Shown: piece by piece, positions 172-36,086 of the stretch | How positions within the stretch are numbered: position 1 is the stretch's first letter | How the letters are laid out: the number at the start of each line of letters is the position of its first letter | DNA from: a virus | Taxonomy: Duplodnaviria > Heunggongvirae > Uroviricota > Caudoviricetes | Strand: one strand, 5' to 3' | Virus record (IMG/VR): IMGVR_UViG_2850756110_000006 | Length of the DNA stretch: 36,404 nt | Translations under genes and position numbers: made by a program | Notes under the pieces: generated by a model | What the model saw: only the letters and a program-made list of their open reading frames with translations | Told to the model about the DNA's origin: nothing | Database searches by the model: none

Positions 172-233
172 ACGTACAACAAATTGAAATAAAAGGATTT
201 ATTTCTGGTCACGTCCACACATTGACCACATCG

Positions 234-260
234 ACAAAAAAAGCCCCTCGACTGAGGGGC
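234..260 (-). terminator. Rho-independent terminator downstream of ogr
   Basis: Hairpin GCCCCTC-N4-GAGGGGC followed by a T7 run on the minus strand, 14 bp past the ogr stop. Confidence 0.7.
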
Positions 261-273
261 TTCCTGTTTCTAA

Positions 274-492
274 TTACATCCACATAATTTGCTGCCCTGA
301 CGGCAACGGGTGCGGCCTTACTGCGTGGACTTCTCCCGGCTTCACGATGTATCTCTGTACCGACTCATAAGTGATGAACGTGGCGCTGCAATTCACGTTC
401 TGACACTGGTGATAACGCTCTTTTGTCGTGTCAGTGATATAGCGACTTGTACGCGCATGTGCGGCATGCTGGCATAAAGGACAATGAAACAT
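274..492 (-). CDS. ogr: Late gene transcriptional activator Ogr (zinc finger, 72 aa)
   Basis: MFHCPLCQHAAHARTSRYITDTTKERYHQCQNVNCSATF... matches P2 Ogr; ATG at 492 with GGAAGAGG SD; track ORF is a 5' over-extension. Confidence 0.95.
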   Translation of the reverse strand: MFHCPLCQHAAHARTSRYITDTTKERYHQCQNVNCSATFITYESVQRYIVKPGEVHAVRPHPLPSGQQIMWM

Positions 493-572
493 CGCGAGCA
501 CCTCTTCCGGTTTTGTTGATGGTGCCATTTTAGTTAATTTACCCTTATAAAACAAACAGATAAAACAAAACA

Positions 573-1736
573 TCACTCATCATCTTCTGTTTCGTACTCC
601 ACATCAGAAAGCCTGACCTCAAGCTCTAAGGACGTCGTGAAGCCGCTATTATTCAGAAAATGTGTCACCTTAGTGATTGTCCAGTCCTGCTCGTCTATGA
701 CGCGCTTAAAGCCTGATACTTTGACCGGCGTTTCCGTGTAAATATCTGCCCGACCAGTAGCCAGACTGATGGAAAACTCCGCAACGCCCCGTTGCAGCTT
801 ATCCCACTTCGCCTGAGCGGCGCGCATGGCCTGCGCTTTCGTGGCATATACCGTGGTCAGGGCAAAAACGTTGTCAGCCTCACCTGCCATGTATTCACCT
901 TCGCGCGCTTCCGGTACTTTTGGCGTTTTCTTCTGCGTGACCGGTTTCGCTTTCGGGTGCTCCAGTGCGCGCAGGTGTTTCTCTTTCTTTTTGCGTTTCA
1001 GTTTTACCTTCTGCTTTTGTGGCTTCGGGTCTTTGGTGTGTAACCACTTTGCTGTTACGCCGGTATAGGCTCCACGGTCAGCAATCGCAAAATGATGGCG
1101 GTCGCCGTCGCTGCGGGTTATGGTGACCTGCGGGATTTTTTTACCACTGGCCGTCACCCCCTGCCCCGCTTTGAGAAACAACAGTTTTCCCATTTTTACC
1201 GAGACCTCACCGCCGTTGCGTTCTGCAAGACGGGTCAGGAATTTCGCATCAGACTCCTGCGACTGGTCGATGTGCGGGATTTTAATTCCGGCCAGTGACG
1301 GAGCGACACTGGCTTCCAGCCTGTTACGGGAGGCTATCGCCTCAACAATCGCACCGAGCGTGGTGTCATGCCAGGAGCCTTCACGGCGGGAATTGAGCGT
1401 CCCGCGGAAATCTGCACTCCGGGCGCGGATGGTGACCACATCCGGCGCGCCCCGGTGTTCAACCTCATCAACGGTGAATTTCCCTTTGCATACCAGGGCA
1501 AAACCTTTCCAGCCGATATACACCGTCAGGACAGCGCCACGAACCGGCAGCCCGACCTGCCCGTCGGCATCGTTCAGTTCAATATCAAGCTGGTCAGCCT
1601 CAAAGCCCCGGTTATCCGTCAGGGTCATGCTCATCAGACGGTCGCTGATATTGCCGGTAATATCCCTGCTGTCGAGCATCAGCATGTAATCCGGCGTCAG
1701 CGTACTACCTGCATCAAATGTCAGCGCGTCCAGCAT
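573..1736 (-). CDS. D: Tail protein D (387 aa)
   Basis: Length and sequence match P2 gpD; start overlaps U stop (TAATG). Confidence 0.95.
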   Translation of the reverse strand: MLDALTFDAGSTLTPDYMLMLDSRDITGNISDRLMSMTLTDNRGFEADQLDIELNDADGQVGLPVRGAVLTVYIGWKGFALVCKGKFTVDEVEHRGAPDVVTIRARSADFRGTLNSRREGSWHDTTLGAIVEAIASRNRLEASVAPSLAGIKIPHIDQSQESDAKFLTRLAERNGGEVSVKMGKLLFLKAGQGVTASGKKIPQVTITRSDGDRHHFAIADRGAYTGVTAKWLHTKDPKPQKQKVKLKRKKKEKHLRALEHPKAKPVTQKKTPKVPEAREGEYMAGEADNVFALTTVYATKAQAMRAAQAKWDKLQRGVAEFSISLATGRADIYTETPVKVSGFKRVIDEQDWTITKVTHFLNNSGFTTSLELEVRLSDVEYETEDDE

Positions 1737-2215
1737 TATCCCGCCCCCGTCATACCCGTGAATTTAGTCGCCATACTGCCAGCCTTACCGATGAGCGATT
1801 CCGCCTGTTTACCGATATCGCCATAAAGCGCGGCCAGTGATTCATCCACGCGGGTGAGCGACAACGTAAAATCAATTTTCCGGGGTGTGCCGTCTGCAAA
1901 GAAAATACTCCCTGTTTCACTCACCCTGCTGATGACATACATGCCGTAAATCATGCCGGTGCCATCCAGCAACGGCCACGCCCGGCCTTCCTCTGCCATC
2001 AGCCTGAGCGTGGTCATCGTCAGCTTCCCGCCGGTCAGTTCGGGATAAAGCACGCCGGCAAGCGTCATGTTTTCCTCACCCACACCGAGAAACTGAAAGG
2101 CATCCCGTTTACCGATACGGGGATTTGACGGCCAGCGATAATCTGATTCGCGCTGCATGGTCTGGTGTGGCAGCGTCTGGCGCATAAAAACAAACATACC
2201 TAACGCGAGCATCAT
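1736..2215 (-). CDS. U: Tail protein U (159 aa)
   Basis: Matches P2 gpU in sequence and length. Confidence 0.95.
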   Translation of the reverse strand: MMLALGMFVFMRQTLPHQTMQRESDYRWPSNPRIGKRDAFQFLGVGEENMTLAGVLYPELTGGKLTMTTLRLMAEEGRAWPLLDGTGMIYGMYVISRVSETGSIFFADGTPRKIDFTLSLTRVDESLAALYGDIGKQAESLIGKAGSMATKFTGMTGAG

Positions 2216-2229
2216 TTTTCGTCACCTCC

Positions 2230-4677
2230 TTAACCGTCATGCATCATGCTGGCACGGGCGCGCGCACGTTTATCCCGCTCGTATTTTTCGAGCGCATCCT
2301 GTAACTGGCGGTCAGGCTGTGTCCCCGGCGCAGTACCACCCGTCAGGCTGATGTGATATTCGTTTTTACTCTGGTCCACATAAGAGCGGCCAGCCGGTGC
2401 CGTAACCGGCTGATAAGCCTGATAGCCTGCATAAGAGCTGGTCGCCGGAATATAACCACCGGTGCCATACGTGGCGGCATTAGTCCTTGCGGCGGTCTGG
2501 TCAAGTGTGTCTGACTCTTTGTTAATAACACCGAGTTTTTCCAGTACCCAGTCAATACCACTGCGCAGTTTGTTGAACGCATTAAGCGGCAGCATCAACG
2601 CGTCAGCCAGTGCCTGCCCGAACATGACGCCCGTGTCACGGAAACGGTTCAGGGTGTCCTGTGTGGCTTTAACCGGGGCAATCAGGTTTTTAAACCACTG
2701 CCACGCGGCCTGTAACTTTTCGCCCAGCCAGTCAAACACCGGCTTAAGTGGCGTGAACAGTTCCCCCACCGGCGCAAATGCCGCTTTCAGCCCTTCCACC
2801 ACACCGCCAAAGAATGCGCTGACAGGCTCCCAGTATTTACGGATAAGCAACGCCCCGGCGACAATGGCGGCCACCACGGCCACAACCGGCCAGCTAATCG
2901 CTCCAATGGCGGTCATAACAGCACTGCCAACCGTCGTGAAGATTGCCCCCATTGCGCCTGCTGCCGCGATGATGGCATTGATGCCGGTGATAACCGGCCA
3001 GGCTACGAGGCCAATGGCGCCGATGACACCAATCATTGCCAGTGCACCACCGACAATGATGCCGATGGTTGACGCCAGTGATTTGTTTTTCTGGATCCAG
3101 CCGTCGAGTTTTAACACATACTTTGTGGCCGTCTGCGTGAGCTTACGCAGTGCGCCTTCCTGCTGGTCAAACAGGTCAGTCCCCACCGCCTCATAAGCGG
3201 ACTGAAACTCCTTAAAGTCACCGCCGAGGTTGTCCTGCATGATATTTACCAGCTCTGCGGTCTTTCCGTCTGAGGCTTTAAACGCAGCGGTCAGTTTGTC
3301 CAGCTTTCCGGTTGAGGCGGCAGTCATCAGCACGGCGGCGGCTGAACTGGCCTCCTCCCCGAAAATGGTTTTCATGTATTCAGCCTGCTGGGCAGTACCG
3401 AGCCGGTTTTTCTCAAAACTGGCCTGCATTTCTTTCAGAATGGTAAATACTGGTCGGGTGTTTCCCTTACTGTCTGAGGTTTTCACACCAAGCTCTTTGA
3501 GTGCATCCCATGCTTTTCCCGTCGGTGCCTGCAGGCGGCTTAACACGGCACGGCTTCCCGTTCCCGCCATTGAGCCTGTGATTTTTGCATCATGCAGCGC
3601 CCCGACCATTGCGGCGGTTTCTTCAATGCTGACACCGGCATTTTTTGCCACAGGTGCGGCATAGGTCAGCGCATCGCTCATGCCGTCAAAATCGGCGGCG
3701 GTTTTGTTCATCGTCATGGAGAGAACATCCCCGATATGAGCGACCTTATCGTTTGAAAGCTGAAAGGCGGATTTCATCCCCATCAGCAGGGCGGCGTTTT
3801 CTTCCATCGTGCGACGGTTCGCCAGCGCCATATTCAGCGTGACCGGCGTTGCCGCCTGAATGGCATCAACATCCCCACCGGCTTTCGCAATAATAATCTG
3901 CGCACCAGCTGCATCATCTGCCGAGGCTGCGGTATTGTCGCCGAGCTGACGCGCCTGCTTGCGTAGTGCAGCCATTTCGGCGGAGTCTTTTACCACTCCG
4001 AGCACGGCCTGCAATTCTGAGTTTTTCTGCGCAAACTCATAACCGGGCATCAGCAGCTTAACTCCGGCCATCGTTCCCGCCGCCGCAATCCCCACACCGG
4101 CAGCGCCCACCGAGGCCATATTTCCGGCCAGTTCCTTTCCGGCCTGATAACGCTGTTTTACTGCGTTAAGTTTTGCCTGTTGTGCACTGACACGCGCCAG
4201 CGCGTCGCGCTGACGGTTAAGCTGTGCGGTGGTTTCACTGATACGGTTTTTCAGTCCCTGCTCATCATGTGCAAGATTGCGGGTATTAATTCCCACAGCG
4301 GCCAGTTCCCGCTGCTGGCGTTTAACGGAATCTGTCAGGCGGTTATATTTCGCCTGTAAGTCCTCCGCCGCACGCTTTGCGGATTCCAGCACTTTCGCCT
4401 GAGCACGGGTCGGACGTTCGGTGTTTTTAAACTGTGTGGCAAGGGCTTCGGCCTCCTGCCGTGCCTTTTCAAGTGCATGACCAGTCACGGCGAGCTGTGC
4501 ACTGGTCTTGCGGAATCCCTCAATACGGGATGCCTGACCGTTCAGCTCGCGCAGTGATTTTTGTGTTTCCCGGATATCCCCCGACAGCGATTTGCTCGCT
4601 GTGCGGATGGATTTAAACGGGCGGGATGCCTGGTCAACAGCCCTGAGCAATACCTGTAATTTTACATTGTTACTCAT
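2230..4677 (-). CDS. T: Tail tape measure protein T (815 aa)
   Basis: 815 aa, hydrophobic Gly/Ala-rich central region, P2 gpT position and length; ATG overlaps E' stop. Confidence 0.95.
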   Translation of the reverse strand: MSNNVKLQVLLRAVDQASRPFKSIRTASKSLSGDIRETQKSLRELNGQASRIEGFRKTSAQLAVTGHALEKARQEAEALATQFKNTERPTRAQAKVLESAKRAAEDLQAKYNRLTDSVKRQQRELAAVGINTRNLAHDEQGLKNRISETTAQLNRQRDALARVSAQQAKLNAVKQRYQAGKELAGNMASVGAAGVGIAAAGTMAGVKLLMPGYEFAQKNSELQAVLGVVKDSAEMAALRKQARQLGDNTAASADDAAGAQIIIAKAGGDVDAIQAATPVTLNMALANRRTMEENAALLMGMKSAFQLSNDKVAHIGDVLSMTMNKTAADFDGMSDALTYAAPVAKNAGVSIEETAAMVGALHDAKITGSMAGTGSRAVLSRLQAPTGKAWDALKELGVKTSDSKGNTRPVFTILKEMQASFEKNRLGTAQQAEYMKTIFGEEASSAAAVLMTAASTGKLDKLTAAFKASDGKTAELVNIMQDNLGGDFKEFQSAYEAVGTDLFDQQEGALRKLTQTATKYVLKLDGWIQKNKSLASTIGIIVGGALAMIGVIGAIGLVAWPVITGINAIIAAAGAMGAIFTTVGSAVMTAIGAISWPVVAVVAAIVAGALLIRKYWEPVSAFFGGVVEGLKAAFAPVGELFTPLKPVFDWLGEKLQAAWQWFKNLIAPVKATQDTLNRFRDTGVMFGQALADALMLPLNAFNKLRSGIDWVLEKLGVINKESDTLDQTAARTNAATYGTGGYIPATSSYAGYQAYQPVTAPAGRSYVDQSKNEYHISLTGGTAPGTQPDRQLQDALEKYERDKRARARASMMHDG

Positions 4678-5097
4678 TCGTGTTTCCGCTTCGCCGGAGC
4701 GCCTTTTCGCGCCATGTGATGAGTTCGGTCAGGCTCATGGGATACAGTTCTGATGGCGGCCAGTGAAATATCACTGCCACATCCGCCATCAGGTCATCGA
4801 CCGAGAGATTTTTCGGAAACGTCACTGCACCGAGTTCGGCGACAAAAAACCGACCACCTTACCGGCCAGCGCCACAAGGTCAGGCAGTTCCAGCGCGGCG
4901 ACTTCCTGCTCGGTCAGCATCGGTGCCGTCATGCGCGGCAGCACCTTAATCAGTGCATCGACTTCAGAGTTCGCGACCGCAGCCAGACTGACACCGCGCA
5001 GCGTCCCGGCACTGGGTTTCATCAGCGTGACCTGTTCGATGACCTGCTCACCACGCTTGACCGGATTGTCCAGGGTAATCACATTTTCTTTGTTCAT
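4670..5097 (-). CDS. E+E': E+E' frameshift-extended tail chaperone (-1 frameshift at TTTTTTG, + coordinates 4843-4849)
   Basis: Hand translation of the -1 frame after the T6G heptamer gives VAELGAVTFPKNLSVDDLMADVAVIFHWPPSELYPMSLTELITWREKALRRSGNTNE, stop TAA at 4670-4672 overlapping the T start. Confidence 0.85.
4822..5097 (-). CDS. E: Tail assembly chaperone E (91 aa)
   Basis: Matches P2 gpE; ends ...GFLSPNSVQ. Confidence 0.95.
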   Translation of the reverse strand: MNKENVITLDNPVKRGEQVIEQVTLMKPSAGTLRGVSLAAVANSEVDALIKVLPRMTAPMLTEQEVAALELPDLVALAGKVVGFLSPNSVQ

Positions 5098-5154
5098 GGT
5101 TTTCTCACTTCTGAATCGGGGGTTAACCGGTCAGCCTGGCTGACCGGATGAAAA

Positions 5155-5673
5155 TCACAGGCCGATATTGCGGCGGTGTTGCTCCAGCCGGTCGACGCCG
5201 TTCACCTTCTCAATCATGTTGATGGTGTCGATTTCGACCAGCTCCTTACCGTCCATCGTCAGCCGGAAATAGGTGCAGACCACGGAGATTTTCGACTCGG
5301 TGTCTTCTCCCTGTTTACCCTCGCCGGTGTCGATTTCTTTCTGACGTCCACGCATGACCACCTCGACGGCCACCGTTTCGCCGGTATCGTCGCGCTGGTA
5401 AGAGCCTGCAAAACGAATCGGCACGGCATCCACACCGGTTGCGGCGTAAAGCTCCCAGATAACCGAATCCGGGAAGCCCCCGAGCGACCACTCCATTGAC
5501 AGCGCATCGTCATCAAGGCCGAGGTCTACCGGTGCGCTGCCGTTCATCCCCGCACCTCGATAGTTTTCGAGCTTACGGGTCAGTTTTGGCAGCGTGACGG
5601 ACTTTGCAACGCCCTGATAGCTGTAGCCGTTCAGAAAGACGTTCATTAACTTGAGTTTGCGCGGCATTGCCAT
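5155..5673 (-). CDS. FII: Tail tube protein FII (172 aa)
   Basis: Matches P2 gpFII in sequence and length. Confidence 0.95.
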   Translation of the reverse strand: MAMPRKLKLMNVFLNGYSYQGVAKSVTLPKLTRKLENYRGAGMNGSAPVDLGLDDDALSMEWSLGGFPDSVIWELYAATGVDAVPIRFAGSYQRDDTGETVAVEVVMRGRQKEIDTGEGKQGEDTESKISVVCTYFRLTMDGKELVEIDTINMIEKVNGVDRLEQHRRNIGL

Positions 5674-5685
5674 CGGTCAGGCTCC

Positions 5686-6876
5686 TTAATTGCTGTTAAC
5701 CGAGGTGACCAGATTTGCCAGGTATTTATCGGTGATACGCTGGCGCAGGGTCAGGTTTTCAAGAGGAGGCACCGGGGTATAGTCGTAGTCGATATACAGT
5801 TTTCCGGCCTTGAGGGTTTCCGCATCGTTGGATTCTTCGCTAAACCAGCAGGTCGCATCCACGATATAGCCGTTTGTTTTCAGCTCACGGAATTTGGCAT
5901 TGATGCCGTCAACGATGTCACGAATCAGCGTTGCGGTGATGGGCTTGTCCACCGCCCACATGTGCGCCTCAGCCATCGTGTCGGCCAGTACCTGTGCGGT
6001 GCGGGTGTAGTTTTCAAAGAGGAACAGCGGGTCATCAGAGCAGGTACGGTTACCCCAGAAGCGGAAACCGTCACGGCGAATCAGTGTTGTGACGCCTGAC
6101 TCGTTAAGCAGGTCAGCATCGGTGCCGGACTCCTGCAAATCCCAGAATACAGATGCGCTGATGCCGGTAACACCGTTCACCCCGACGTTGGACAGCGTTT
6201 TATGCCAGCCCTGCTCCTGGTCGATTTTGGCACGCAGACCCAGCGCACGGGCGGTAGCATACGCGGTGGCGGTGGTACTGGTGACCGTATCCCATGCGAG
6301 GAAATCCGGCCAGATGACCATCAGCTCACGCTGGCTGAAATTCTGGCGGTAAGCTTTCACCTCGGAAATGGTTTTACAGCCCCATGCGCTGATATACCCG
6401 AAAGCGCGCAACTTCTGACAGACTGATGCCAGTGCAACAGCCACCTCTTTGGTATCCAGTCCCGGTACGCCGAGAATACGCGGTTTAACACCGGTTACCG
6501 ACTCCGCCGCCAGCAGGGCTTTCAGTCCGGTGTACTGACCGTTTTCGTCGGTGGTGCCGATGATATTGGAAACGGTCTGCGCGAGTTTCGTTTCTTCGTC
6601 GTCGCCGGTGCCGTCTTCCACGCGCACAACAACGGTGACCGGTTTTGACTGGTCAGCGATGGCCTGCAACGATGCCGCCAGCGTGCCTTTTTTACCGGCC
6701 TTTGCAATTGCGCTCTGCACATTGGTAATCAGCACCGGTTTATTGAGGGGGAAGGTTTCCGCATCCGCATCGCTGGCCGTGCAGACCATGCCGACAATGG
6801 CGGTGGATACGGTTGAAATGACGCGGGTGCCGTCGTTAATCTCCAGCACCTGCACGCCGTGATGATAGTCACTCAT
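5686..6876 (-). CDS. FI: Tail sheath protein FI (396 aa)
   Basis: Matches P2 gpFI in sequence and length. Confidence 0.95.
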   Translation of the reverse strand: MSDYHHGVQVLEINDGTRVISTVSTAIVGMVCTASDADAETFPLNKPVLITNVQSAIAKAGKKGTLAASLQAIADQSKPVTVVVRVEDGTGDDEETKLAQTVSNIIGTTDENGQYTGLKALLAAESVTGVKPRILGVPGLDTKEVAVALASVCQKLRAFGYISAWGCKTISEVKAYRQNFSQRELMVIWPDFLAWDTVTSTTATAYATARALGLRAKIDQEQGWHKTLSNVGVNGVTGISASVFWDLQESGTDADLLNESGVTTLIRRDGFRFWGNRTCSDDPLFLFENYTRTAQVLADTMAEAHMWAVDKPITATLIRDIVDGINAKFRELKTNGYIVDATCWFSEESNDAETLKAGKLYIDYDYTPVPPLENLTLRQRITDKYLANLVTSVNSN

Positions 6877-6986
6877 CCGTTTAACTCCGTGGTTAATGGG
6901 TGCAACTATTTTCTGTTGTACAGAGCATGAGACGCTATTTGATCTGTCTGGTCAGTGGATGAAACAACAGATACAGAAAAGGCGGG
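6877..6986 (-). promoter_or_regulatory. Presumed late promoter region for the FI-FII-E-T-U-D operon (P_F), now abutting the IS2 end
   Basis: Position upstream of FI as in P2; no convincing Ogr-site consensus could be verified by eye. Confidence 0.3.
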
Positions 6987-6997
6987 TGGATTTGCCC

Positions 6998-7903
6998 CTA
7001 TATTTCCAGACATCTGTTATCACTTAACCCATTACAAGCCCGCTGCCGCAGATATTCCCGTGGCGAGCGATAACCCAGCGCACTATGCGGATGCCATTCG
7101 TTATAATGCTCGAACGCCTCTGCAAGGTTCTTTGCTGCCGTTAACCCGTCTGGTTTGGGCATGATACTGATGTAGTCACGCTTTATCGTTTTCACGAAGC
7201 TCTCTGCTATTCCGTTACTCTCCGGACTCCGCACCGCCGTGTTCTTCGGTTCAAGTCCCAACATCCGGGCGAACTGGCGTGTTTCATTAGCCCGGTAGCA
7301 TGAACCATTATCCGTCAGCCACTCCACTGGAGACGACGGAAGATCGTTGCCGAAGCGGCGTTCCACCGCTCCCAGCATGACGTCCTGTACTGTTTCACTG
7401 TTGAAGCCGCCGGTAGTCACCGCCCAGTGCAGTGCCTCACGATCACAGCAGTCCAGCGCGAACGTGACACGCAGTCTCTCTCCGTTATCACAGCAGAACT
7501 CGAACCCGTCAGAGCACCATCGCTGATTGCTTTCTTTCACGGCCACTCTGCCTGTATGTGCCCGTTTCGATGGCGGTACAGCAGGTTTTCGCTCAAGCAA
7601 CAGCGCATTCTGGCGCATGATCCGGTAAACACGTTTGGCATTGATCGCAGGCATACCATCAAGTTCTGCCTGTCTGCGAAGCAGCGCCCATACCCGACGA
7701 TAACCATACGTGGGCAGCTCTCCGATAACATGGTGTATACGGAGAAGCACATCCGTATCATCAGTGTGACGACTGCGGCGGCCATCCATCCAGTCATCGG
7801 TTCGTCTGAGAATGACGTGCAACTGCGCACGCGACACCCGGAGACAACGGCTGACTAAGCTTACTCCCCATCCCCGGGCAATAAGGGCGCGTGCGCTATC
7901 CAC
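6998..7903 (-). CDS. insD: IS2 transposase OrfB (InsD, 301 aa)
   Basis: [34 protein letters not shown]... matches IS2 InsD; integrase-like core. Confidence 0.9.
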
Positions 7904-8226
7904 TTTTTTGCCCGTCCATATTCAACGGCTTCTTTGAGGAGTTCATTTTCCATCGTTTTCTTGCCGAGCAGGCGCTGGAGTTCTTTAATCTGCTTCATGG
8001 CGGCAGCAAGTTCAGAGGCAGGAACAACCTGTTCTCCGGCGGCCACAGCAGTAAGACTTCCTTCCTGGTATTGCTTACGCCAGAGAAATAACTGGCTGGC
8101 TGCTACACCATGTTGCCGGGCAACGAGGGAGACCGTCATCCCCGGTTCAAAGCTCTGCTGAACAATTGCGATCTTTTCCTGTGTGGTACGCCGTCTGCGT
8201 TTCTCCGGCCCTAAGACATCAATCAT
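7861..8226 (-). CDS. insC: IS2 OrfA (InsC, 121 aa); an A6G slippery site at + coordinates 7904-7910 would fuse it to InsD
   Basis: [41 protein letters not shown]... matches IS2 InsC; CAAAAAAG on the minus strand just upstream of the insD ATG. Confidence 0.9.
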
Positions 8227-8399
8227 CTGTACTCCAATGACTAGTCTAAAAACTAGTATTAAGACTATCACTTATTTAAGTGATACTGGTTGTCTGGAGA
8301 TTCAGGGGGCCAGTCTAACGGGCAATTCGCCCGCCTGTCCTAGTTTGTACTCACTCATTTTCCGACTGACAATTTACATAGCCAAAACGCTATCAAATC

Positions 8400-8433
8400 T
8401 GACAGTCTGCTTTGAGCGAAAAGCAGACTGTCA
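8400..8433. repeat. Perfect palindrome (14-bp stem, 6-nt loop), motif copy A of a three-member family
   Basis: TGACAGTCTGCTTT-GAGCGA-AAAGCAGACTGTCA read directly; no adjacent T-run. Confidence 0.7.
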
Positions 8434-8548
8434 CGCGTTGAAGTTAATTGTATTACTTAGATAAACACTATCATTTTCCTGACGTTAAGTTGTATCTTTG
8501 ATAGGATTAAAAAACGTATAGATAGCTTATGCTACTGAGGGAATAAAA

Positions 8549-9358: not shown

Positions 9359-9412
9359 CGGCTAAATCATACAATCTACGCATGTTCACTTTCTACATAT
9401 ACCATCTATAAT

Positions 9413-9437
9413 GTCCGCTGTTGGCACAAAGCAGACG
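9413..9437. repeat. Imperfect palindrome, motif copy B, between the convergent 269-aa and 425-aa genes
   Basis: GTCCGCTGTT-GGCAC-AAAGCAGACG, related to copies A and C. Confidence 0.55.
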
Positions 9438-9498
9438 CCCACTCTCACGCGAATGCTTTGCCCTTGACTTGCCAACAACCGTATCGCTTGCTCCGCAA

Positions 9499-10776: not shown

Positions 10777-10839
10777 TCTGCATTCCCTCATATTGCAGCC
10801 GGGATAAATAAATGCCGCCTCTGTGGCGGCATGTTGCTG

Positions 10840-13683: not shown

Positions 13684-13686
13684 AAA

Positions 13687-23672: not shown

Positions 23673-23675
23673 CGG

Positions 23676-25662: not shown

Positions 25663-25835
25663 TGTCAGGAGTCCTGAATAGTGATTAGAGGAGTCACATG
25701 TCGGCATCAGTTTCCCGACGATGCGCATCCTCCGCCATCAGTCCCGGATGGCTTATCACTGACACAACAGCACCTTAGCGAATCGCGGGGCGCGACTCAG
25801 TAGCCTTGCCGTGTATTCATCACGGCGAGGTATTC
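25663..25835. promoter_or_regulatory. Divergent late promoter region between O and P
   Basis: Intergenic position between divergently transcribed late operons as in P2; no site consensus verified. Confidence 0.4.
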
Positions 25836-27608: not shown

Positions 27609-28642
27609 TGAGCAAGAAAAAAGGGAAAACACCGCAACCTGCGGCAAAAAAAATGACCGCCAGCGCCCCGAAAATGGAGGCATTCACCTTTGGTGAGCCG
27701 GTGCCGGTACTCGACCGCCGTGACATTCTGGATTACGTCGAGTGCATCAGTAACGGCAGATGGTATGAGCCACCGGTCAGCTTTACCGGTCTGGCAAAAA
27801 GTCTGCGTGCTGCCGTGCATCACAGCTCACCGATTTACGTTAAACGCAATATTCTGGCCTCGACATTTATCCCGCATCCGTGGCTTTCCCAGCAGGATTT
27901 CAGCCGCTTTGTGCTGGATTTTCTGGTGTTCGGTAATGCGTTTCTGGAAAAGCGATACAGCACCACCGGTAAGGTCATCAGACTGGAAACCTCACCGGCA
28001 AAATATACCCGCCGTGGTGTGGAGGAGGATGTTTACTGGTGGGTACCGTCCTTCAACGAGCCGACACCTTTCACGCCCGGCTCCGTATTTCACCTGCTGG
28101 AGCCCGATATTAATCAGGAGCTGTACGGCCTGCCGGAATATCTCAGCGCCCTTAACTCTGCCTGGCTGAATGAATCGGCCACGCTGTTCCGCCGCAAGTA
28201 TTACGAAAACGGCGCACATGCCGGATACATCATGTACGTCACCGATGCCGTGCAGGATCGCAACGATATCGAAATGCTCCGCGAAAACATGGTGAAGTCG
28301 AAAGGCCGCAACAACTTTAAAAACCTGTTTCTCTATGCCCCACAGGGGAAAGCCGACGGCATTAAAATTATCCCGCTCAGTGAAGTGGCAACGAAGGACG
28401 ATTTTTTTAATATCAAAAAAGCCAGCGCCGCTGACCTGCTGGACGCGCACCGCATCCCCTTTCAGTTGATGGGCGGCAAGCCGGAGAACGTCGGGTCGCT
28501 GGGCGATATTGAGAAAGTGGCAAAGGTCTTTGTCCGCAATGAGCTTATCCCGCTACAGGACAGGATCCGCGAGATAAACGGCTGGCTCGGCCAGGAAGTC
28601 ATCCGCTTTAAAAACTACTCACTGGACACTGACAACAGCTGA
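27608..28642 (+). CDS. Q: Portal protein Q (344 aa)
   Basis: Matches P2 gpQ. Confidence 0.95.
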   Translation: MSKKKGKTPQPAAKKMTASAPKMEAFTFGEPVPVLDRRDILDYVECISNGRWYEPPVSFTGLAKSLRAAVHHSSPIYVKRNILASTFIPHPWLSQQDFSRFVLDFLVFGNAFLEKRYSTTGKVIRLETSPAKYTRRGVEEDVYWWVPSFNEPTPFTPGSVFHLLEPDINQELYGLPEYLSALNSAWLNESATLFRRKYYENGAHAGYIMYVTDAVQDRNDIEMLRENMVKSKGRNNFKNLFLYAPQGKADGIKIIPLSEVATKDDFFNIKKASAADLLDAHRIPFQLMGGKPENVGSLGDIEKVAKVFVRNELIPLQDRIREINGWLGQEVIRFKNYSLDTDNS

Positions 28643-28647
28643 ACATC

Positions 28648-28668
28648 GCCGCCTGCGGGCGGCTTTTT
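28648..28668 (+). terminator. Rho-independent terminator after Q
   Basis: GCCGCC-TGC-GGGCGGC followed by TTTTT. Confidence 0.7.
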
Positions 28669-28811
28669 ACACCCCGTCATCACGCCCTCATACGCTCACC
28701 ACCGCACAAAACACCCCGCAGACACACCAACGGCCCCGGCGAACAATCTAAACGCCATCACGACGCGCTCAGACGCTGAAAAAATAAAATCAGCACCACC
28801 GCCAGCGCGCA

Positions 28812-28830
28812 GTGCTTTCCCCGCCTCGCC
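28812..28830. other. cos: cos site (19-nt cohesive-end sequence)
   Basis: GTGCTTTCCCCGCCTCGCC is the reverse complement of the recalled P2 cohesive end GGCGAGGCGGGGAAAGCAC. Confidence 0.75.
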
Positions 28831-29045
28831 CGCCCGCTTTATGGGTCGGTTTTAATGCAGGTGCACGAATACACCGGAGGCGCGCCGGCACTGGTGGCGC
28901 TCAGACGCAACAGGGGAGGAAAACGCATGCAATTGAATGCATTTCTAGGCACACCTAAAAATGAAAAAATGTTATGACAATTAATCATTTTAAACACACT
29001 GATTAAGGGTAGAATTCTCCTAGTAAAATCATAGAAAAACCGCTA

Positions 29046-29974
29046 TCAAACCAGGCTTTTGCCTTGCTTCATTTTTTTAGATGAGTCTAAAAATTTGAAA
29101 TTATCATTAGATGAAAATATTCTTTCTGCGGTATGCCGAATGACTGAAGTATTGAAGACCGCAGCCTGCTCCTCATTACAACTGAATACACCCTCATGAC
29201 CATCAAACTCGCCCGCCAAAAGAAGGTTTTTTGATACTGGGAACAAAACTAAAGTGTCTTTTACACCAAACCCGGGGAATAAGGGCCTCGTGCTAATTCA
29301 GGATTAGTCCACATTAAGCAAACTGGGTTATCTGAAGTTATAAATGACCCTTGCCCATCAGATATGGTCATAAGTGACCAGTTGCGTTGATGCAACAACT
29401 TGGTGATAACAGGTACACATTTCATTTCCATATCTATCATGAACTCTCTGATTACATTGATTTCGAAATTATCCCCATCCACAAAATTTTTAATTTTTTC
29501 GTAAGCGAGATCATATGGCAAAGACTCACCCATTTCTTTCTCATAAGCTAATTTGCAATCGTCCCAACGCTCAGCCGAACTAACTGAGGATTTCATGATA
29601 AACTTTGCTATTTGTTTCAATGGAGATGATAAATGTTCTCGCTGAGCAGGCGTACGTATTGCCAATAAGGAAATAAACTCCAGAATAACATCTTTGGTTT
29701 CGCCTGAAAACTCGCCCCCTCCTCAAGTTTTCTTAAATGAGTAGCGACACTGCCTTCAAACTCTGCAAGAGAACTCTCGAGATAGTTTGGGTCAACTCCA
29801 TCCAATTCTAATCGGTTGAAATCTCTAACCCCCCCCGACATTGCGAGTATTACTCTCAAAGGTTTTGCGCTCCTTTAAATCTATTACAGTTAATTTTGAT
29901 TTTTTCCCCCCATTACTTGTAAACCCTTTCAAATAACATTGGGATAAAAAATGATGATGCCTTGCAACACTCAT
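29046..29974 (-). pseudogene. AT-rich DUF4238-like gene at the tin/old position, split into four frame-shifted fragments
   Basis: N-terminus MSVARHHHFLSQCYLKGFTS resembles the DUF4238 HxxPQFYLKxF motif (from memory); frame breaks at a G8/C8 run (29829-29836), near 29617-29665 and near 29246-29261. Confidence 0.65.
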
Positions 29975-30077
29975 ACTCAGCTCCGTTATGGCTATAATCG
30001 CATAAATAATAAGCACTTATATTGCAATCATCTAGTTAAATACACAATATTTATGACTCCGAAATTTCATTAAATCA

Positions 30078-32249
30078 CTATTGATAGGTTTTACCAATTA
30101 GTGCCAGCTCGAAATGGATGCGTGGAATCTGCGAACGTTCAGCCTTTGTCATCCGCCCTGATGGCGCTATCTGGTACGGTTTTAATGGTTCGCAGTTTCT
30201 TTGTTGCCAATTCGGTCTCGGTGCACCATGTTTTAATGCACTCCTGAGCACCGTCACAACTTCCGGGTCATCCCATCCGATAACACCACTATCAACCAGA
30301 TTTAACACCGCTGCGGCATGCTCAGACGGTGTAGGGTGCATAACCGGAACGTCACCGCCGGTGAACTTTCCACAGTTATTGACAGGACTCCGAGGCGCGG
30401 CGATGCCGCTTTTTAAAGTCAAAGGCTCAACGACCGGCACTTTCGGCACAATGCGCCAGTCCGTCGTTCTGGTGATATGAATATGACGCGCGCCGAGATG
30501 CGGCGCGTAAATGCCGACCACTCTCTCGACTTCTTCCTCGTACTCGTTAACTTCATCCGACGGGCTACGGGCGACCCTGACAGTCTGACAATCGCGCGGG
30601 ACATTTGCCCCACCCTGCGCGCTGATATACAACGCAAAATCACCACTGTCTGCGGCGGCGCGAGCAGCCTCGACGCGCTCGTCAAACTCATCAGCAATGC
30701 TGACGCCGCGCGGCAATTTGCGTAGTTCACGGTAAGCCCCCATTGTCGGCAGACCAACCGTTTTAAATTGTGGGATGCGCCACGTTGACGCCCATGCGGT
30801 AACAGCCGCGGCAGTATCTTTAAGCGGCTTACCGGTATCGTTATCGAGCTGACCATCCAGTGCATAGCCGTCGATATTTTTTGAGATGTATTTCGCGATA
30901 TACCCCGCAGCACCGCCCCGGTTAAGGTGTTTCGCCTGAAAACGGTTTCGCGCAGCTCCTCTTTCGTCGCCATCCTCTTTGAGCGCATAGCGACGCATGA
31001 TTTCGATAATCTGGTTACGCTGGCGCGGATTACAAAAAAGCATCATATGCCAGTGCGGCGTTCCGTCGTGGTGTGGCTCGACGACACGCAAACCGTAGAC
31101 CTGTAAATCATTATCCTTGAATGCCGTGCGCATCAGGCTCCAGATACGGCAGAGATAACGCTGCGCATCCTTTGGATTAAATGCCTCATCGTTCCAGCCG
31201 TGATTTAGCTGGACGGTTTTACTTTCGCCTTTTCTGACCTGACGTGTCGGGTGATACTTTGACGGCGCGGTCAGCGTGATAAACATCCCCACATCACCCT
31301 CTGCTGCGGCGTAACGCTCAATACCGGCAATGGTGTTCATCAGCTCCATCCGGCGAATTTCAGGATTAGAAATACTGCCCATCACCTTACTGATAAGGTC
31401 GATGCGCTCGCCGGTTTCCCTGTTTTCAAGGTCACATGATTTAAGAAATTCCAGATTTGCCTGGCGGCGCGCACGCACATCACGAATGGCATGTTTACTG
31501 GCATAAGGAGAACGGTCTTTATTGACCTCCCCGACAGCTATCAGTAACGCCTCATGCCAGCGCATACGCTGGCCTTTAAGCTGATGAGTCCACCACTCAT
31601 CGTTAAACAGGCGGGCAATGGCAGAATATGCCTGCCTCGTGGTCATCTGTCCTTTACGGTATTTTTTCCAGTAGAGCGGGGAAATATTGAAAGCACGTGC
31701 AGCGCCAGCAACATGACCATAAAGGTGAGCCTGCGCCTCATCCGTAAACAGCGATTCTTTTTCGCCATGTGCATCAACCCAGGCATCGCAGAGTTCCTCA
31801 TACATCATGAAAAGCTGCGATGAGATACGGGCAGCAAACTTTTTCAGCTCCTTGTCATTCATTCCCGGCAGGCGCGCATAGTGGTCACGCTCTGCCAGAA
31901 ACAGCAACGACGCGTCGGTGTTCATTTCATGGCGCTGATTCACACGCTCAATGCGCGGCCATAAACGACGCTGAAAAGTGGATGTGAGGAAATAAAACCC
32001 GTGCACCGGGCTTTTATTGCGCCGGATGTAGTCATAACGTGAAGTAAACAGCGAGCGCAAAAAGTAAGGCAGGCGGTTAATCGTGGATAAAACACCTTGC
32101 ACCTGACGCATCTCGTCACGTGTAAGGGGTCTTTCGCGCCCGACAGCCTCGCGTGGCGCGTTCCATGCATAAGCACCGGTAAACGTCTTACCGGTGCCTG
32201 CGGCAAATGCTGACGGAGGGACAAAACGCCCGGAGGCTTTAACGGCCAT
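30078..32249 (-). CDS. A: Replication initiation protein A (rolling-circle nickase, about 723 aa)
   Basis: MAVKASGRFVPPSAFAAGTGK... matches P2 gpA; HHDGTPHWHMML HUH-like motif and YIAKYISK tyrosines; track ORF starts at an upstream TTG. Confidence 0.9.
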   Translation of the reverse strand: MAVKASGRFVPPSAFAAGTGKTFTGAYAWNAPREAVGRERPLTRDEMRQVQGVLSTINRLPYFLRSLFTSRYDYIRRNKSPVHGFYFLTSTFQRRLWPRIERVNQRHEMNTDASLLFLAERDHYARLPGMNDKELKKFAARISSQLFMMYEELCDAWVDAHGEKESLFTDEAQAHLYGHVAGAARAFNISPLYWKKYRKGQMTTRQAYSAIARLFNDEWWTHQLKGQRMRWHEALLIAVGEVNKDRSPYASKHAIRDVRARRQANLEFLKSCDLENRETGERIDLISKVMGSISNPEIRRMELMNTIAGIERYAAAEGDVGMFITLTAPSKYHPTRQVRKGESKTVQLNHGWNDEAFNPKDAQRYLCRIWSLMRTAFKDNDLQVYGLRVVEPHHDGTPHWHMMLFCNPRQRNQIIEIMRRYALKEDGDERGAARNRFQAKHLNRGGAAGYIAKYISKNIDGYALDGQLDNDTGKPLKDTAAAVTAWASTWRIPQFKTVGLPTMGAYRELRKLPRGVSIADEFDERVEAARAAADSGDFALYISAQGGANVPRDCQTVRVARSPSDEVNEYEEEVERVVGIYAPHLGARHIHITRTTDWRIVPKVPVVEPLTLKSGIAAPRSPVNNCGKFTGGDVPVMHPTPSEHAAAVLNLVDSGVIGWDDPEVVTVLRSALKHGAPRPNWQQRNCEPLKPYQIAPSGRMTKAERSQIPRIHFELALIGKTYQ

Positions 32250-32514
32250 ATGAGCCAAAAGCCTCTGAACAACGCCTGCTGAGTTGCTCAACCTGCGCGT
32301 TTAAATCAGCAAAAGACTTTGCGCTTCCGGTCAGAATATCGTGATGCATCAGGCCGGAAACGAGCTGGCTTAATTTCGGGTAATAACCAACCACCGCCAG
32401 CCATTCCTGACCGGCGTTTTTACCGCTTTCCGCTCTCTTTTTCTCGTGGAGAATAAACTGAAAGCTGTCACTGGTAACGACATAACGTTCGCCAATTTCA
32501 ATACGAATGCTCAT
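32239..32514 (-). CDS. Hypothetical early protein (91 aa, orf83 position)
   Basis: Intact ORF in the A-B interval, coupled to neighbours by overlapping stop/start. Confidence 0.7.
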   Translation of the reverse strand: MSIRIEIGERYVVTSDSFQFILHEKKRAESGKNAGQEWLAVVGYYPKLSQLVSGLMHHDILTGSAKSFADLNAQVEQLSRRCSEAFGSYGR

Positions 32515-32735
32515 GCCATTCTCCGGTAATGTTTGTTTTTTGCTTCAAAGACTGACTGACAGGAAACACAACGCGTGGCTGACGGATAAGCCGCACGACG
32601 GGCAGCAGGTATTGGCGCGTCACACTCTTCGCAAACCAGCGAAGAAACACCGCAATGTTTTACCCTTGCCGCGTTAATCTGGCGCTCCAGTAATTCAGTC
32701 TGTTGTTCCTGAATAAAATCTACGTTGTCCGGCAT
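32511..32735 (-). CDS. TraR/DksA-like C4 zinc-finger protein (74 aa, orf82 position)
   Basis: CGVSSLVCEECDAPIPAARRAAYPSATRCVSCQ: Cx2C...Cx2C motif. Confidence 0.75.
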   Translation of the reverse strand: MPDNVDFIQEQQTELLERQINAARVKHCGVSSLVCEECDAPIPAARRAAYPSATRCVSCQSVFEAKNKHYRRMA

Positions 32736-33040
32736 TACCAGTTCCTTTTGTCGTTCAGTTTTTTAAATTCATCAGCGCAATAGCTGGCAAGTTCTGTCGT
32801 TAATTTTGTCAGTTCATCCACTGAGGAAATTTGCTTGTGGAATACAGCGCGTTTAACAAGTAAATTGACCACATCAGACAGGAGGTTTAATTCGTTCTGA
32901 TAAATCGCGATAACAGACTCAGTTATTTCGCGTTTTTCTTTATCAAGACCAAGTTGAATAAGAGACAAATCGCCATTTTTCATAACGGCGATTTTTAAGG
33001 CGTTATTCAGTAATACAACTGAACGAGAACAGGACATCAA
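32735..33040 (-). CDS. Hypothetical early protein (101 aa, orf81 position)
   Basis: Intact ORF overlapping neighbours by start/stop. Confidence 0.65.
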
Positions 33041-33261
33041 AGCACCTCCCCGCGAGACAATCCGATATTGTGAAATTTTTCCGACTCCTGACTGAGCAGC
33101 TCGACTATCTCCACGCGGGATAACTCCGCCTTTGTGATGTGGCGAATCATGGCATCAAGATGAGAAGAAAAGCGCGTCGCAGCGTCGGCCTGTGCTTCGG
33201 TTCTGGCCTGTTGCAGCAGTAATGCGTATTTACCGCACTGATTTTCAGAAACTGTATGCAT
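33037..33261 (-). CDS. Hypothetical early protein (74 aa, orf80 position)
   Basis: Intact ORF in conserved position. Confidence 0.65.
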
Positions 33262-33324
33262 AACTTTCTCCAGGCAAAAAGAAGCCCCGCACGATTAAGT
33301 GCGTTAAAAACTCTGGTTAATTAC

Positions 33325-33825
33325 TTAATGCAGATATTGCTCTGGTTTTACCGACGTCAGAATTGTCGGTGCATACTCAAACAGGCTGAATAATTCACGT
33401 AATGCACGGAATAAAGCATCACGCCAGTAACATGACTCTTCATTAATTCGCCAGTATGGCTGGTTGAATTCTTTTTCAGTCAATCCGGCATGCATAAATA
33501 AAGTACGACGCTGACTGACTGTTAAAAAACTAATATATGCATACTCACTTGCGCCAACCTGACGGCGTTTTGAGAATGCCCCACGCAATTCATCAATTGC
33601 ACATACCAGTCGTTCACGTTCGACATCATTCATTTCTTCAAAACGCATCGTTGCGTGACGCTGTTTTAACTGCGCATGGAAGCAAACCGTTAGCCGTTCA
33701 CGTTCCATCATCTGATTATAATAATCGCATGTCTCCTGCCAGCGAGGGACGGCCAGATGCTTACCAATTATCCGGCGCATAGCTGCTGGCTGTTTTTCAA
33801 CAAGATTGAGCGTCATCACTGTCAT
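33325..33825 (-). CDS. B: Replication protein B (helicase loader-like, 166 aa)
   Basis: Length and sequence consistent with P2 gpB. Confidence 0.85.
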   Translation of the reverse strand: MTVMTLNLVEKQPAAMRRIIGKHLAVPRWQETCDYYNQMMERERLTVCFHAQLKQRHATMRFEEMNDVERERLVCAIDELRGAFSKRRQVGASEYAYISFLTVSQRRTLFMHAGLTEKEFNQPYWRINEESCYWRDALFRALRELFSLFEYAPTILTSVKPEQYLH

Positions 33826-34016
33826 TTCCAGACCCTCCGACTTTTCAGAAAGGTCAGAGCCTTCTTTAACGGACTCTGTTTTTTGGTGCGGATAATGATT
33901 CCCTTGCGTCCCTTACCGTGGGTAATGGTGAAGTCAATCGCCCTGGGGCTTTCGTTACGCAGTAACTGAGCAATACAACGAGGCTCATTCATACGGTTCT
34001 CCTTAACGTGGTTCAC
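33822..34016 (-). CDS. Hypothetical small protein (64 aa, orf78 position)
   Basis: ORF between cox and B overlapping both. Confidence 0.55.
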   Translation of the reverse strand: MNHVKENRMNEPRCIAQLLRNESPRAIDFTITHGKGRKGIIIRTKKQSPLKKALTFLKSRRVWK

Positions 34017-34278
34017 CGAGACCTAACCACATCAACCAGCCGTCACGAATCTCTTTAGGGCGGCTTTCATAAGCCAGTTTTAGTCCGTTATTCCATGCCG
34101 GAAGGTATACCCAATATTCACCTGCACGACCTGAAGCTGATTGTGGATCGGTCATATCAATTACAGGCAGCTTTCCTTTATCGATCATCCGACGAACCGC
34201 TCCTGTCGATTTTCCTATTAGTTTTGCGAACTCCTGATAAGGAATCGCATCAGTCATGAGTGTTACTTGCTTGCTCAT
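34003..34278 (-). CDS. cox: Cox excisionase / early-operon regulator (91 aa)
   Basis: MSKQVTLMTDAIPYQEFAKLIGKSTGAVRRMIDKGKLPVIDM... matches P2 Cox. Confidence 0.95.
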   Translation of the reverse strand: MSKQVTLMTDAIPYQEFAKLIGKSTGAVRRMIDKGKLPVIDMTDPQSASGRAGEYWVYLPAWNNGLKLAYESRPKEIRDGWLMWLGLGEPR

Positions 34279-34392
34279 GTCGTCCTCCAGCCCTCATGAA
34301 TTGCGTTTAATGCCTTATAATGCCTTTTAGTGCCCACATCCAAGCACTAAACAATCTACATCTAAACTAAATACTATTGAGATCTAAACACT
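34279..34392. promoter_or_regulatory. Divergent early (Pe)/repressor (Pc) promoter-operator region
   Basis: Intergenic between divergent cox and C; direct repeats of TCTAAAC and AATGCCTT visible, plausible C/Cox binding sites. Confidence 0.6.
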
Positions 34393-34692
34393 ATGTCAAA
34401 CACGATAAGCGAGAAGATAGTCTTAATGCGAAAATCTGAGTATTTGAGCAGACAACAACTTGCTGATTTAACAGGGGTTCCGTATGGCACGCTGAGTTAC
34501 TATGAAAGTGGTCGTTCAACACCTCCAACAGATGTCATGATGAACATCCTGCAGACCCCACAATTCACCAAATACACTTTATGGTTCATGACAAATCAGA
34601 TCGCTCCTGAGTCCGGGCAAATTGCGCCCGCTCTCGCACACTTTGGGCAAAACGAAACAACGTCGCCCCACTCCGGTCAAAAGACTGGTTAA
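34393..34692 (+). CDS. C: Immunity repressor C (99 aa)
   Basis: MSNTISEKIVLMRKSEYLSRQQLADLTGVPYGTLSYYESGRSTPP... matches P2 C. Confidence 0.95.
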   Translation: MSNTISEKIVLMRKSEYLSRQQLADLTGVPYGTLSYYESGRSTPPTDVMMNILQTPQFTKYTLWFMTNQIAPESGQIAPALAHFGQNETTSPHSGQKTG

Positions 34693-34807
34693 CAATTTAT
34701 CGTGAATATATTCATCACAAGTGCCTACTATTGGTGGCTAAATTTCAGCCACCACGAAAAAAGCGATTAGTAGTAGCAAAAAAAAGTACCACTCGGAGGG
34801 TTTTCTG

Positions 34808-35821
34808 ATGGCAATCAAAAAACTCGATGATGGTCGATATGAAGTGGACATCCGCCCTACTGGACGTAACGGAAAACGCATCCGTAGGAAGTTTGATAAG
34901 AAAAGCGAAGCTGTCGCTTTCGAAAAATACACGTTGTACAACCACCACAATAAAGAATGGCTATCAAAACCAACAGACAAACGACGTCTGTCGGAACTGA
35001 CACAGATCTGGTGGGATTTAAAGGGTAAACACGAAGAGCATGGGAAATCTAATCTTGGAAAAATTGAAATCTTCACAAAAATAACGAATGACCCATGCGC
35101 ATTTCAAATCACGAAATCCCTTATCAGCCAGTACTGCGCCACCCGAAGAAGTCAGGGTATTAAACCTTCGAGTATCAATCGTGATTTAACATGTATTAGC
35201 GGCATGTTTACAGCCCTGATTGAAGCGGAGTTATTCTTTGGTGAGCACCCTATCAGAGGGACAAAGAGGCTTAAGGAGGAAAAACCAGAAACAGGCTATC
35301 TCACACAGGAAGAAATTGCCTTACTGCTTGCAGCACTTGACGGCGACAATAAAAAGATTGCGATTCTTTGCCTGAGTACAGGAGCACGTTGGGGAGAAGC
35401 AGCTCGTTTGAAAGCAGAAAATATCATCCATAACCGCGTCACGTTTGTTAAAACGAAAACAAACAAACCACGCACCGTCCCGATCTCAGAGGCTGTTGCC
35501 AAAATGATCGCGGATAACAAACGAGGTTTTTTATTCCCTGATGCTGATTACCCTCGCTTCAGACGAACAATGAAAGCAATAAAACCGGATTTGCCAACGG
35601 GGCAAGCCACACATGCACTAAGGCACAGCTTTGCCACTCATTTCATGATTAATGGAGGAAGTATTATCACGCTACAACGGATACTAGGTCACACGCGGAT
35701 TGAGCAAACTATGGTTTACGCTCATTTTGCGCCAGAGTACCTTCAGGACGCCATTTCTCTTAATCCGCTAAGAGGTGGTACTGAGGCCGAGAGTGTCCAC
35801 ACAGTGTCCACAGTAGAGTAA
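34808..35821 (+). CDS. int: Tyrosine integrase (337 aa)
   Basis: Matches P2 Int; catalytic signature ...HALRHSFATH...LGHTRIEQTMVYAH. Confidence 0.95.
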   Translation: MAIKKLDDGRYEVDIRPTGRNGKRIRRKFDKKSEAVAFEKYTLYNHHNKEWLSKPTDKRRLSELTQIWWDLKGKHEEHGKSNLGKIEIFTKITNDPCAFQITKSLISQYCATRRSQGIKPSSINRDLTCISGMFTALIEAELFFGEHPIRGTKRLKEEKPETGYLTQEEIALLLAALDGDNKKIAILCLSTGARWGEAARLKAENIIHNRVTFVKTKTNKPRTVPISEAVAKMIADNKRGFLFPDADYPRFRRTMKAIKPDLPTGQATHALRHSFATHFMINGGSIITLQRILGHTRIEQTMVYAHFAPEYLQDAISLNPLRGGTEAESVHTVSTVE

Positions 35822-35900
35822 CGTTTAAGGGCTTTCAGTGGTAATTTATGCCGCTCAAACCCGCATTGTACCGTTGAAAGCCCCTACTGGTGACACCCTA

Positions 35901-35927
35901 AATCTCCCTTACACGGGCTTATTTTTT
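35901..35927. repeat. P2 att core copy (27 bp), int-proximal prophage junction
   Basis: Exact direct repeat of 145-171. Confidence 0.85.
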
Positions 35928-36086
35928 TATGCATAAGCCCTATCTCTGGTAACCGTCTTCCATTGACCACATCGATAGAATCCTCCTTCATAGCACGATG
36001 CCTTTCACTTATCGGCATCGTGCTCCCACAGGTTCCGGCTACGCACAGCCAGAACGCGCATATTTGACGCTTACCAAAAAATATTC

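Follow-up and report, generated by a model that had tools for sequence, protein, structure and literature searches.

What accounts for a single short repeat lying beside both attachment (att) cores of an integrated phage, once within the prophage and once in the bacterial DNA beyond it? The question is raised by a 36,404-nucleotide (nt) stretch of DNA (IMG/VR record IMGVR_UViG_2850756110_000006, here termed the window, in whose positions all coordinates are given), which consists of a P2-type prophage with short host DNA on both sides. As described below, the copy within the prophage corresponds to a mapped arm-binding site of the P2 integrase (Int), and the copy in the host flank is probably the fossil of such a site, left behind by a decayed P2-type element (the yegR islet) through tandem accretion at the P2 integration site locI. 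The two copies would then be sites of one kind that differ in age.

A 27-bp core, AATCTCCCTTACACGGGCTTATTTTTT, is present twice in the window as exact duplicates (145-171 and 35901-35927), and the repeat follows each of them, its strand and its side of the core being the same in both cases. The identity is exact over 15 nt, CATTGACCACATCGA, which occupies 220-234 on the phage side and 35961-35975 on the host side, and begins at a distance of 48 nt from the first core and of 33 nt from the second. A preliminary description of the window, which first drew attention to this repeat, was correct as to its existence but had placed its start (218) 1 to 2 nt too far to the left; the phage-side copy ACATTGACCACATCGA (219-234) carries one mismatch against the 16-mer reported there, and the host-side copy is CCATTGACCACATCGA (35960-35975). 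When up to two mismatches are allowed, the pattern is seen twice in the window, as compared with 0.02 occurrences expected from window shuffles. Gapped similarity extends in the 5' direction to approximately 36 nt, with one small pair of indels, and joins 199-234 (TATTTCTGGTCA-CGTCCACACATTGACCACATCGA) to 35940-35975 (TATCTCTGGTAACCGTCTTC-CATTGACCACATCGA) with a local score of 46, the maximum among shuffles being 33 (0 of 2000 as good).

The identity of the phage-side copy is established by comparison with phage P2, in whose nomenclature P arm denotes the ogr side of the core and P' arm the int side. The relevant features at the left junction are the following.

83-168, plus strand: cyaR (RyeE) small RNA (sRNA) gene (Rfam RF00112, 100.7 bits, model positions 1-85 of 85).
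136-163 (stem): intrinsic terminator of cyaR, which is also the P2 att core (terminator scan).
145-171: left 27-bp att core, identical to the attP core annotated in P2.
170-203: P-arm binding region for integration host factor (IHF), aligning to the P2 'IHF' protein-binding feature with 1 mismatch.
207-234: Int P-arm binding site, GGTCACGTCCACACATTGACCACATCGA, 28/28 identical to the P2 'Int, P arm' protein-binding feature (AF063097).
220-234: phage copy of the 15-nt repeat, comprising the core-distal arm-type repeat and flanking bases.
224-231: TGACCACA, within the distal arm-type unit of the phage copy.

The annotated P2 'Int, P arm' feature and the 15-nt repeat share an exact end, at 234. 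Read on the minus strand, 207-234 consists of TGTGGTCA, ATG and TGTGGACG, that is, of two arm-type direct repeats 11 nt apart, both of which fit the P2-type arm consensus tgTGGaCa (PMC3448106) and are placed beyond the IHF region at the P2 distance from the core. Given this identity to a mapped P2 site, and the fit to the consensus, the repeat represents the core-distal arm-type unit of the Int P-arm site, and the phage copy would be expected to act as an integrase arm site. The protein and the remaining sites are found at the opposite end of the prophage.

34808-35821, plus strand: int, a P2-type tyrosine integrase of 337 amino acids (open reading frame extraction; 3' end identical to P2).
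35787-35813: P'-arm binding site of Int, in which the TGTCCACA repeat occurs twice; no difference from the P2 'Int, P' arm' feature.
35811-35884: P'-arm region bound by Cox, without difference from the P2 'Cox' protein-binding feature.
35901-35927: right 27-bp att core, an exact duplicate of the left core.

Because the 3' end of int and both arms are identical to those of P2, the site at 207-234 is likely to be bound by this prophage's own Int. The distal half of the P arm would be contacted by the N-terminal, arm-binding domain of the protein, and the phage copy, the adjacent repeat, the IHF site and the core would together build the attP intasome used for integration; thereafter, the phage copy would belong to the cyaR-side junction that is used in excision.

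The host-side copy lies in a sequence that retains part of the same arrangement.

35928-35980: fossil P arm of a probable older P2-type element, forming the left end of the yegR islet (alignment statistics, fuller relic alleles).
35961-35975: host-flank copy of the 15-nt repeat.

In reverse complement, this copy contains TGTGGTCA at 35964-35971, which is identical to the phage distal repeat and fits tgTGGaCa. A repeat pair 11 nt apart is absent, the proximal unit reading GAAGACGG on the minus strand (as compared with TGTGGACG) with a 1-nt indel, and an IHF site at P2-like spacing is likewise absent, the distance from core to repeat being 33 nt rather than the 48 of the phage arm. The IHF region is missing from most E. 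coli alleles, is partly kept in the EC2257 allele, and is kept in a sister lineage of E. coli, L106. The P arm aligns to the common E. coli post-core DNA with a score of 46, to the EC2257 allele with a score of 44 (with an additional match, GGATTGATCCCAGGTGACCG), and to L106 with a score of 57.5 (IHF region included, in a sequence without the arm repeats), and in each case none of 2000 shuffles performed as well. The EC2257 allele keeps an extra 12-15 nt, GACGGATTGATCCCAGGTGACCG, that match the P-arm stretch AAAGGATTTATTTCTGGTCACG, and the post-core sequence of LH85a, ACGCGTAA, resembles the P arm of the cryptic P2 remnant of K-12. Overall, the similarity of the relic to P arms spans 36-46 nt (0/2000 shuffles), and its continuous matches to P arms other than that of P2 reach 17-20 nt: intact arms of Citrobacter and Scandinavium and that of one viral contig read CATTGACCACATCGATA(GAA), and match the E. 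coli fossil over more positions than P2 does.

The homology of the flank to a P arm is limited in extent. Of the segment 35928-36086, which the preliminary description had suggested might align to the ogr-distal end of P2-type prophages, approximately the first 50 nt are phage-like and do so align, and the remainder does not; a blastn search against 50,697 phage records returned the core only, plus two records that include E. coli host flank. Taken together, these alignments make a strong case that the left end of the islet is a decayed P arm.

Two additional properties of the core and its immediate flank were noted. The T-run within the core is 6 T long at the left junction (165-171) and 7 at the right (35921-35928), and both lengths also occur among empty-site alleles. 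Furthermore, the bacterial site has an inverted repeat of its own at 35915-35940, GGGCTTAT-N10-ATAAGCCC, which runs from the terminal part of the core to nucleotide 13 of the flank and is disrupted in the EC2257 and DS566 alleles.

The flank is itself inserted DNA, as a survey of gene order across the Enterobacteriaceae indicates. One genome per species was scanned for a cyaR seed, which yielded 120 enterobacterial loci that were classed by tblastn. In 63 of the 120 species, Escherichia sp. E1V33 among them, the distance from the cyaR terminator to the start of yegS is 74-145 nt, and the gene yegR, which intervenes in E. coli, was found only in E. coli-type loci (that is, in E. coli and L106).

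36087-36404, minus strand: yegR, a small lipoprotein-like open reading frame of 105 amino acids, cargo of the islet (RefSeq annotation).

The short cyaR-yegS gap elsewhere, together with the restricted occurrence of yegR, shows that E. coli carries an inserted islet of 0.8-1.0 kb between the core and the ancestral spacer. The 'host DNA' to which the preliminary description assigned the second repeat copy was, together with yegR, itself anciently inserted.

The right edge of the islet lies beyond the end of the window, at a decayed core approximately 770 nt after 35927. Alignment of the ancestral spacer continues into this decayed core, AATCCTCCATACTTGAACTGACTTTTT, which matches 18-19 of 27 bases without gaps and is located exactly at the predicted position; in three alleles, only 1 to 15 of 957 windows of real sequence match as well. 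It is preceded by sequence resembling a P' arm rather than the body of cyaR. The P' arm and core, aligned as a chain, outscore all 2000 shuffles, and the P' arm alone is equalled by 7 of 2000 shuffles and by 3 of 300 real-sequence controls. On these alignments, the case for the right end is a moderate one, with the P' arm relic weaker than the core.

The host copy of the repeat is not a lysogen-specific feature, a reading that was rejected on its distribution, which takes in empty sites and almost every E. coli genome. Among 5426 complete E. coli genomes, the flank (35928-36404) was found in 5418 and the host copy in 5403-5418, and in EcN the site is empty, with the core followed directly by ATGCATAAGCCCTATCTCTGGTAACCGTCTTCCATTGACCACATCGATAG; a contiguous empty junction of this type occurs in at most 4218 of the 5426. 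Strain K-12 holds both copies, one in the P arm of its ogrK/D' remnant and one after the truncated right core, and a K-12-type ogrK/D' junction is found in 357 of the 5426 genomes (and was seen in L001). Since K-12 carries both remnant and fossil, the fossil P arm described above also follows the truncated right core there. The absence of such a remnant from the window, which had been remarked upon in the preliminary description, is borne out: the K-12 type joins ogr and a truncated D to a truncated right core (TACACGGGCTTATTTTTTT), and in the window a full prophage takes its place, with two complete 27-bp cores approximately 35.7 kb apart, ogr at one end and int at the other. The features at the ogr end that lie inside the P arm are the following.

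241-262: terminator hairpin of ogr and the F operon (P2 annotation, terminator scan).
274-492, minus strand: ogr, late-gene activator and first prophage gene inside the P arm (sequence; P2 and K-12 annotations).

Loci at cyaR in other species provide better-preserved examples of the same kind of structure. Inserts between cyaR and yegS elsewhere end with a second core 79-94 nt before yegS, which matches at 22 of 22 positions in L098 and L114 and is recognisable in L010, L028, L080 and L106. The 2.2-kb islet of L114 (Enterobacter) is plainly a P2-type remnant: its P arm is decayed and its P' arm intact, both TGTCCACA repeats being present, and it has the second core as well as an int fragment (amino acids 202-328, 79.5% identity to the window Int, E 7e-65). 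A faint trace of int is present in L017, and P-arm-like DNA follows the cyaR core in 15 of the 120 species. Placed in order, these loci give a series of increasing decay that leads from the window prophage through the K-12 ogrK/D' remnant, L114 and L017 to the E. coli yegR islet.

Several other observations were made on these loci. The cyaR-yegS gap is an insertion hot spot across the Enterobacteriaceae (L005-L124). The insert measures 634 nt in many Enterobacter and 1.9-2.2 kb in others; that of Salmonella is 3.3 kb long and that of Raoultella 4.4 kb, and several of the inserts have a terminal second core. The 2-kb islet of L098, also from Enterobacter, encodes two membrane-like proteins and no integrase. 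L059 (E. albertii) has a P2-type P arm that, approximately 45 nt beyond the core, is interrupted just past its first arm repeat by DNA that resembles the end of an insertion sequence (TGTAAGTATCCC...), followed by transposase-like sequence.

The history that best accommodates these observations begins with an old P2-type element that would have integrated into the cyaR terminator and subsequently lost nearly everything through deletion and mutation. Its left core would have remained intact because it serves as the terminator of the cyaR sRNA. Such a process would leave, in order, an intact core, a decayed P arm, yegR, a decayed P' arm, a decayed core, the ancestral spacer and yegS. Later P2-type phages, including the prophage of the window, would then have integrated into the surviving left core and, with the prophage in that position, the fossil P arm would come to lie just outside its int-side (right) end. 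The preliminary description had offered two readings of the repeat, as extended att homology or as the scar of an older P2-type element, and both hold, with a decayed P arm on the left and a decayed second core on the right: the att homology is extended because of the scar. The phage copy is the mapped P2 site, the host copy is universal in E. coli, its flank is homologous to a P arm, and the islet is an insertion; for the islet as a whole, a P2-type origin is the probable one.

A number of observations weigh against this history, or fit it less comfortably. A perfect run of 15-20 nt within a relic that is otherwise approximately 60-70% identical is mildly unexpected under neutral decay (rough p ~0.03-0.2). 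At the right end, the decayed core is not significant in the O157 allele, where 135 of 957 controls are as good, and the P' arm relic requires approximately 75-85 nt of extra DNA (one long gap) relative to P2 (p ~0.004-0.025). No trace of int or ogr was detected by tblastn in the E. coli islets, no genuine phage homologue of YegR and no Pfam hit to it were found, and the interior of the islet, including the yegR-yegS intergenic region, gave no genuine match to phages, only records that bear host flank. Finally, on a short segment of yegQ, E1V33 (which has no islet) appears closest to L106 (which has one), a grouping that would require precise loss or transfer of the islet and that leaves the polarity of its gain or loss, as judged from yegQ distances, ambiguous.

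The possibility that yegR is itself a phage gene gained no support, as its PHROG and tblastn matches trace to prophage-derived records with host flank. YegR does align from end to end with PHROG 21109 (E 4e-71); among phage records it is encoded only in ON470606 and AY639599, both prophage-derived entries with E. coli flank, and the PHROG family is probably host contamination. The non-coding part of the islet displays further structure. Between the fossil P arm and the stop codon of yegR there is an indel of approximately 170 bp (L002 ~1657-1826, EcN; also L127 and L106); it is present in EcN, ST131 and L106 and absent from the window (36075 to 36087), K-12 and O157, and holds a possible small open reading frame on the yegR strand, of 51 amino acids from a GTG or 41 from an internal ATG. 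The DNA downstream of yegR (35928-36090, minus strand) folds far better than shuffles (z = -5.4) and contains two strong hairpins, at 35992-36024 and ~36031-36054, the first of which has a stem conserved save for a G-to-A change in ST131 and a loop that is polymorphic among 8 alleles; no T-run terminator was found in that segment.

Among other explanations for the repeat pair, the one that survives best proposes that the host copy is a functional part of an extended attB, kept as an accessory arm-type Int site beside the core. In one version the copy might help P2 Int to capture locI, and explain the preference for that site, and in another it might modulate excision at the int-side junction, lysogens having arm sites on both sides of that core. 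The perfection of the match (15 nt, and 17-20 nt against other P arms) within a relic otherwise ~60-70% identical is in its favor, as is the conservation of a 31-mer around the host copy, which has no mismatch in 5236 of 5414 genomes and does not vary among 8 diverse alleles in which neighboring bases do; in several other relics, moreover, the distal repeat core TGACCAC outlasts the proximal repeat. Against this, non-coding islet DNA elsewhere has stretches of 57, 32 and 28 nt without variation, so that the conservation of the host copy is not exceptional, and the L106 lineage has lost the repeat altogether. Decay of the partner repeat, deletion of the IHF region from most alleles and a spacing from the core 15 nt shorter than in attP all suggest that the fossil copy is most likely inert. 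P2 recombination in vitro reportedly works with a core-sized attB, which likewise counts against a role for the copy, and there is no obvious benefit to the host. No promoter or terminator signal is present at the host copy, and no evidence for its function was found. A functional host copy is considered unlikely. A more speculative extension, in which the arm site in the attB flank would provide P2-type Int at cyaR with a second foothold for its arm domain, biasing the choice of locI or the balance of integration and excision, and in which cyaR islets would perhaps be hitchhikers that keep arm sites and are moved in trans by P2-type Int, is regarded as quite improbable.

It is also conceivable that the direction of transfer was the reverse, with the host copy being the original and the P2 P arm having been captured from the E. 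coli flank via aberrant excision. Both copies do lie on the same side of the core, as capture of the specialised-transduction type gives. Such an event predicts homology that is contiguous from the core, whereas the intervening sequences differ in both content and length (48 versus 33 nt), and the host copy is on an islet that is absent from most Enterobacteriaceae. The arm is common to P2-like phages of Klebsiella, Yersinia and Salmonella. Moreover, in IMG/VR contigs, at least three cores unrelated to one another are found beside P arms that contain the 15-mer, the proximal repeat and the IHF region, which argues that the repeat was not captured by phage from the host and makes this direction of transfer very improbable. 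One IMG/VR P arm matches the host copy over 20 nt. One contig in that collection, L133, contains two complete P arms with the 15-mer (4683-4697 and 6234-6248), 1.55 kb apart and each beside a different core sequence, and possibly represents a further tandem remnant.

That a short oligomer should be identical near both att copies by chance is hardly credible: while 15-mers do recur in very large collections (85 of the 118 IMG/VR matches that were read in context have no proximal arm repeat, so that most are not P arms), only 0.02 occurrences are expected in the window, the copies share strand and side of the core, fuller relic alleles exist, and the candidate was ruled out by shuffles and extended homology (36-46 nt, 0/2000), the repeat being neither missing from empty sites nor confined to some lysogens, as the preliminary description had noted would indicate chance, but present in the EcN empty site, in K-12 and in ~5400 of 5426 genomes.

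On the reading favored here, that of a fossil arm site left by an earlier P2-type element, the classic P2 site locI (the cyaR terminator) acquires a different status, in that the 'naive' E. coli site would itself be the left junction of a fossil element, and yegR would be fossil cargo rather than ancestral chromosome. This bears on the interpretation of experiments on P2 site preference, and on how sRNA terminators that are used as att sites gather small islets. For the annotation of prophage boundaries, it implies that similarity to a phage arm reaches approximately 50 bp past the true end of the prophage. No new mechanism is revealed: the fossil would be an ordinary outcome of the repeated use of one att site, and is apparently an undescribed example of it. 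No published description of this fossil was found, with a possible earlier mention in a 1992 paper on P2 attachment sites.

Comparison with known systems places the two copies as follows. The P-arm site of P2 attP was reportedly mapped by Yu and Haggard-Ljungquist in 1993. Relative to that site (AF063097, NC_001895) the phage copy shows no difference, and the IHF site (with 1 mismatch), core, P' arm and Cox region match as well, whereas the host copy differs in having one repeat of two, no IHF site, and a position 15 nt nearer to the core. The arm sites of phage lambda (P1, P'1-3) are likewise repeats distant from the core that are bound by the N-terminal domain of Int, with IHF bending the DNA between, and belong to another sequence family with a different geometry; in the lambda paradigm attB has no arm-type sites, whereas the flank of the E. 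coli attB described here carries a fossil one.

The cryptic P2 remnant of K-12 (ogrK and the gene D fragment yegZ), reportedly described by Barreiro and Haggard-Ljungquist in 1992, occupies the same att site (cyaR/yegR) in the same orientation, and is also a deletion-reduced P2-type prophage that keeps the cyaR-side core and P arm. That remnant is young, its P arm and ogr being nearly identical to those of P2, and sits upstream of the fossil, whereas nearly all E. coli have the fossil, in which decay has gone much further. A general parallel is found in tandem accretion, and in the att-flanked, non-autonomous remnants (cis-mobilizable elements, or CIMEs) that have been described for integrative and conjugative elements in Streptococcus thermophilus. 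There, as here, a decayed element lies between repeats of the att core, and a new element enters the surviving core to produce a tandem array; at cyaR, the elements are P2-type phages, the target is an sRNA terminator, and the old right core and P' arm appear too decayed for present mobilisation of the islet.

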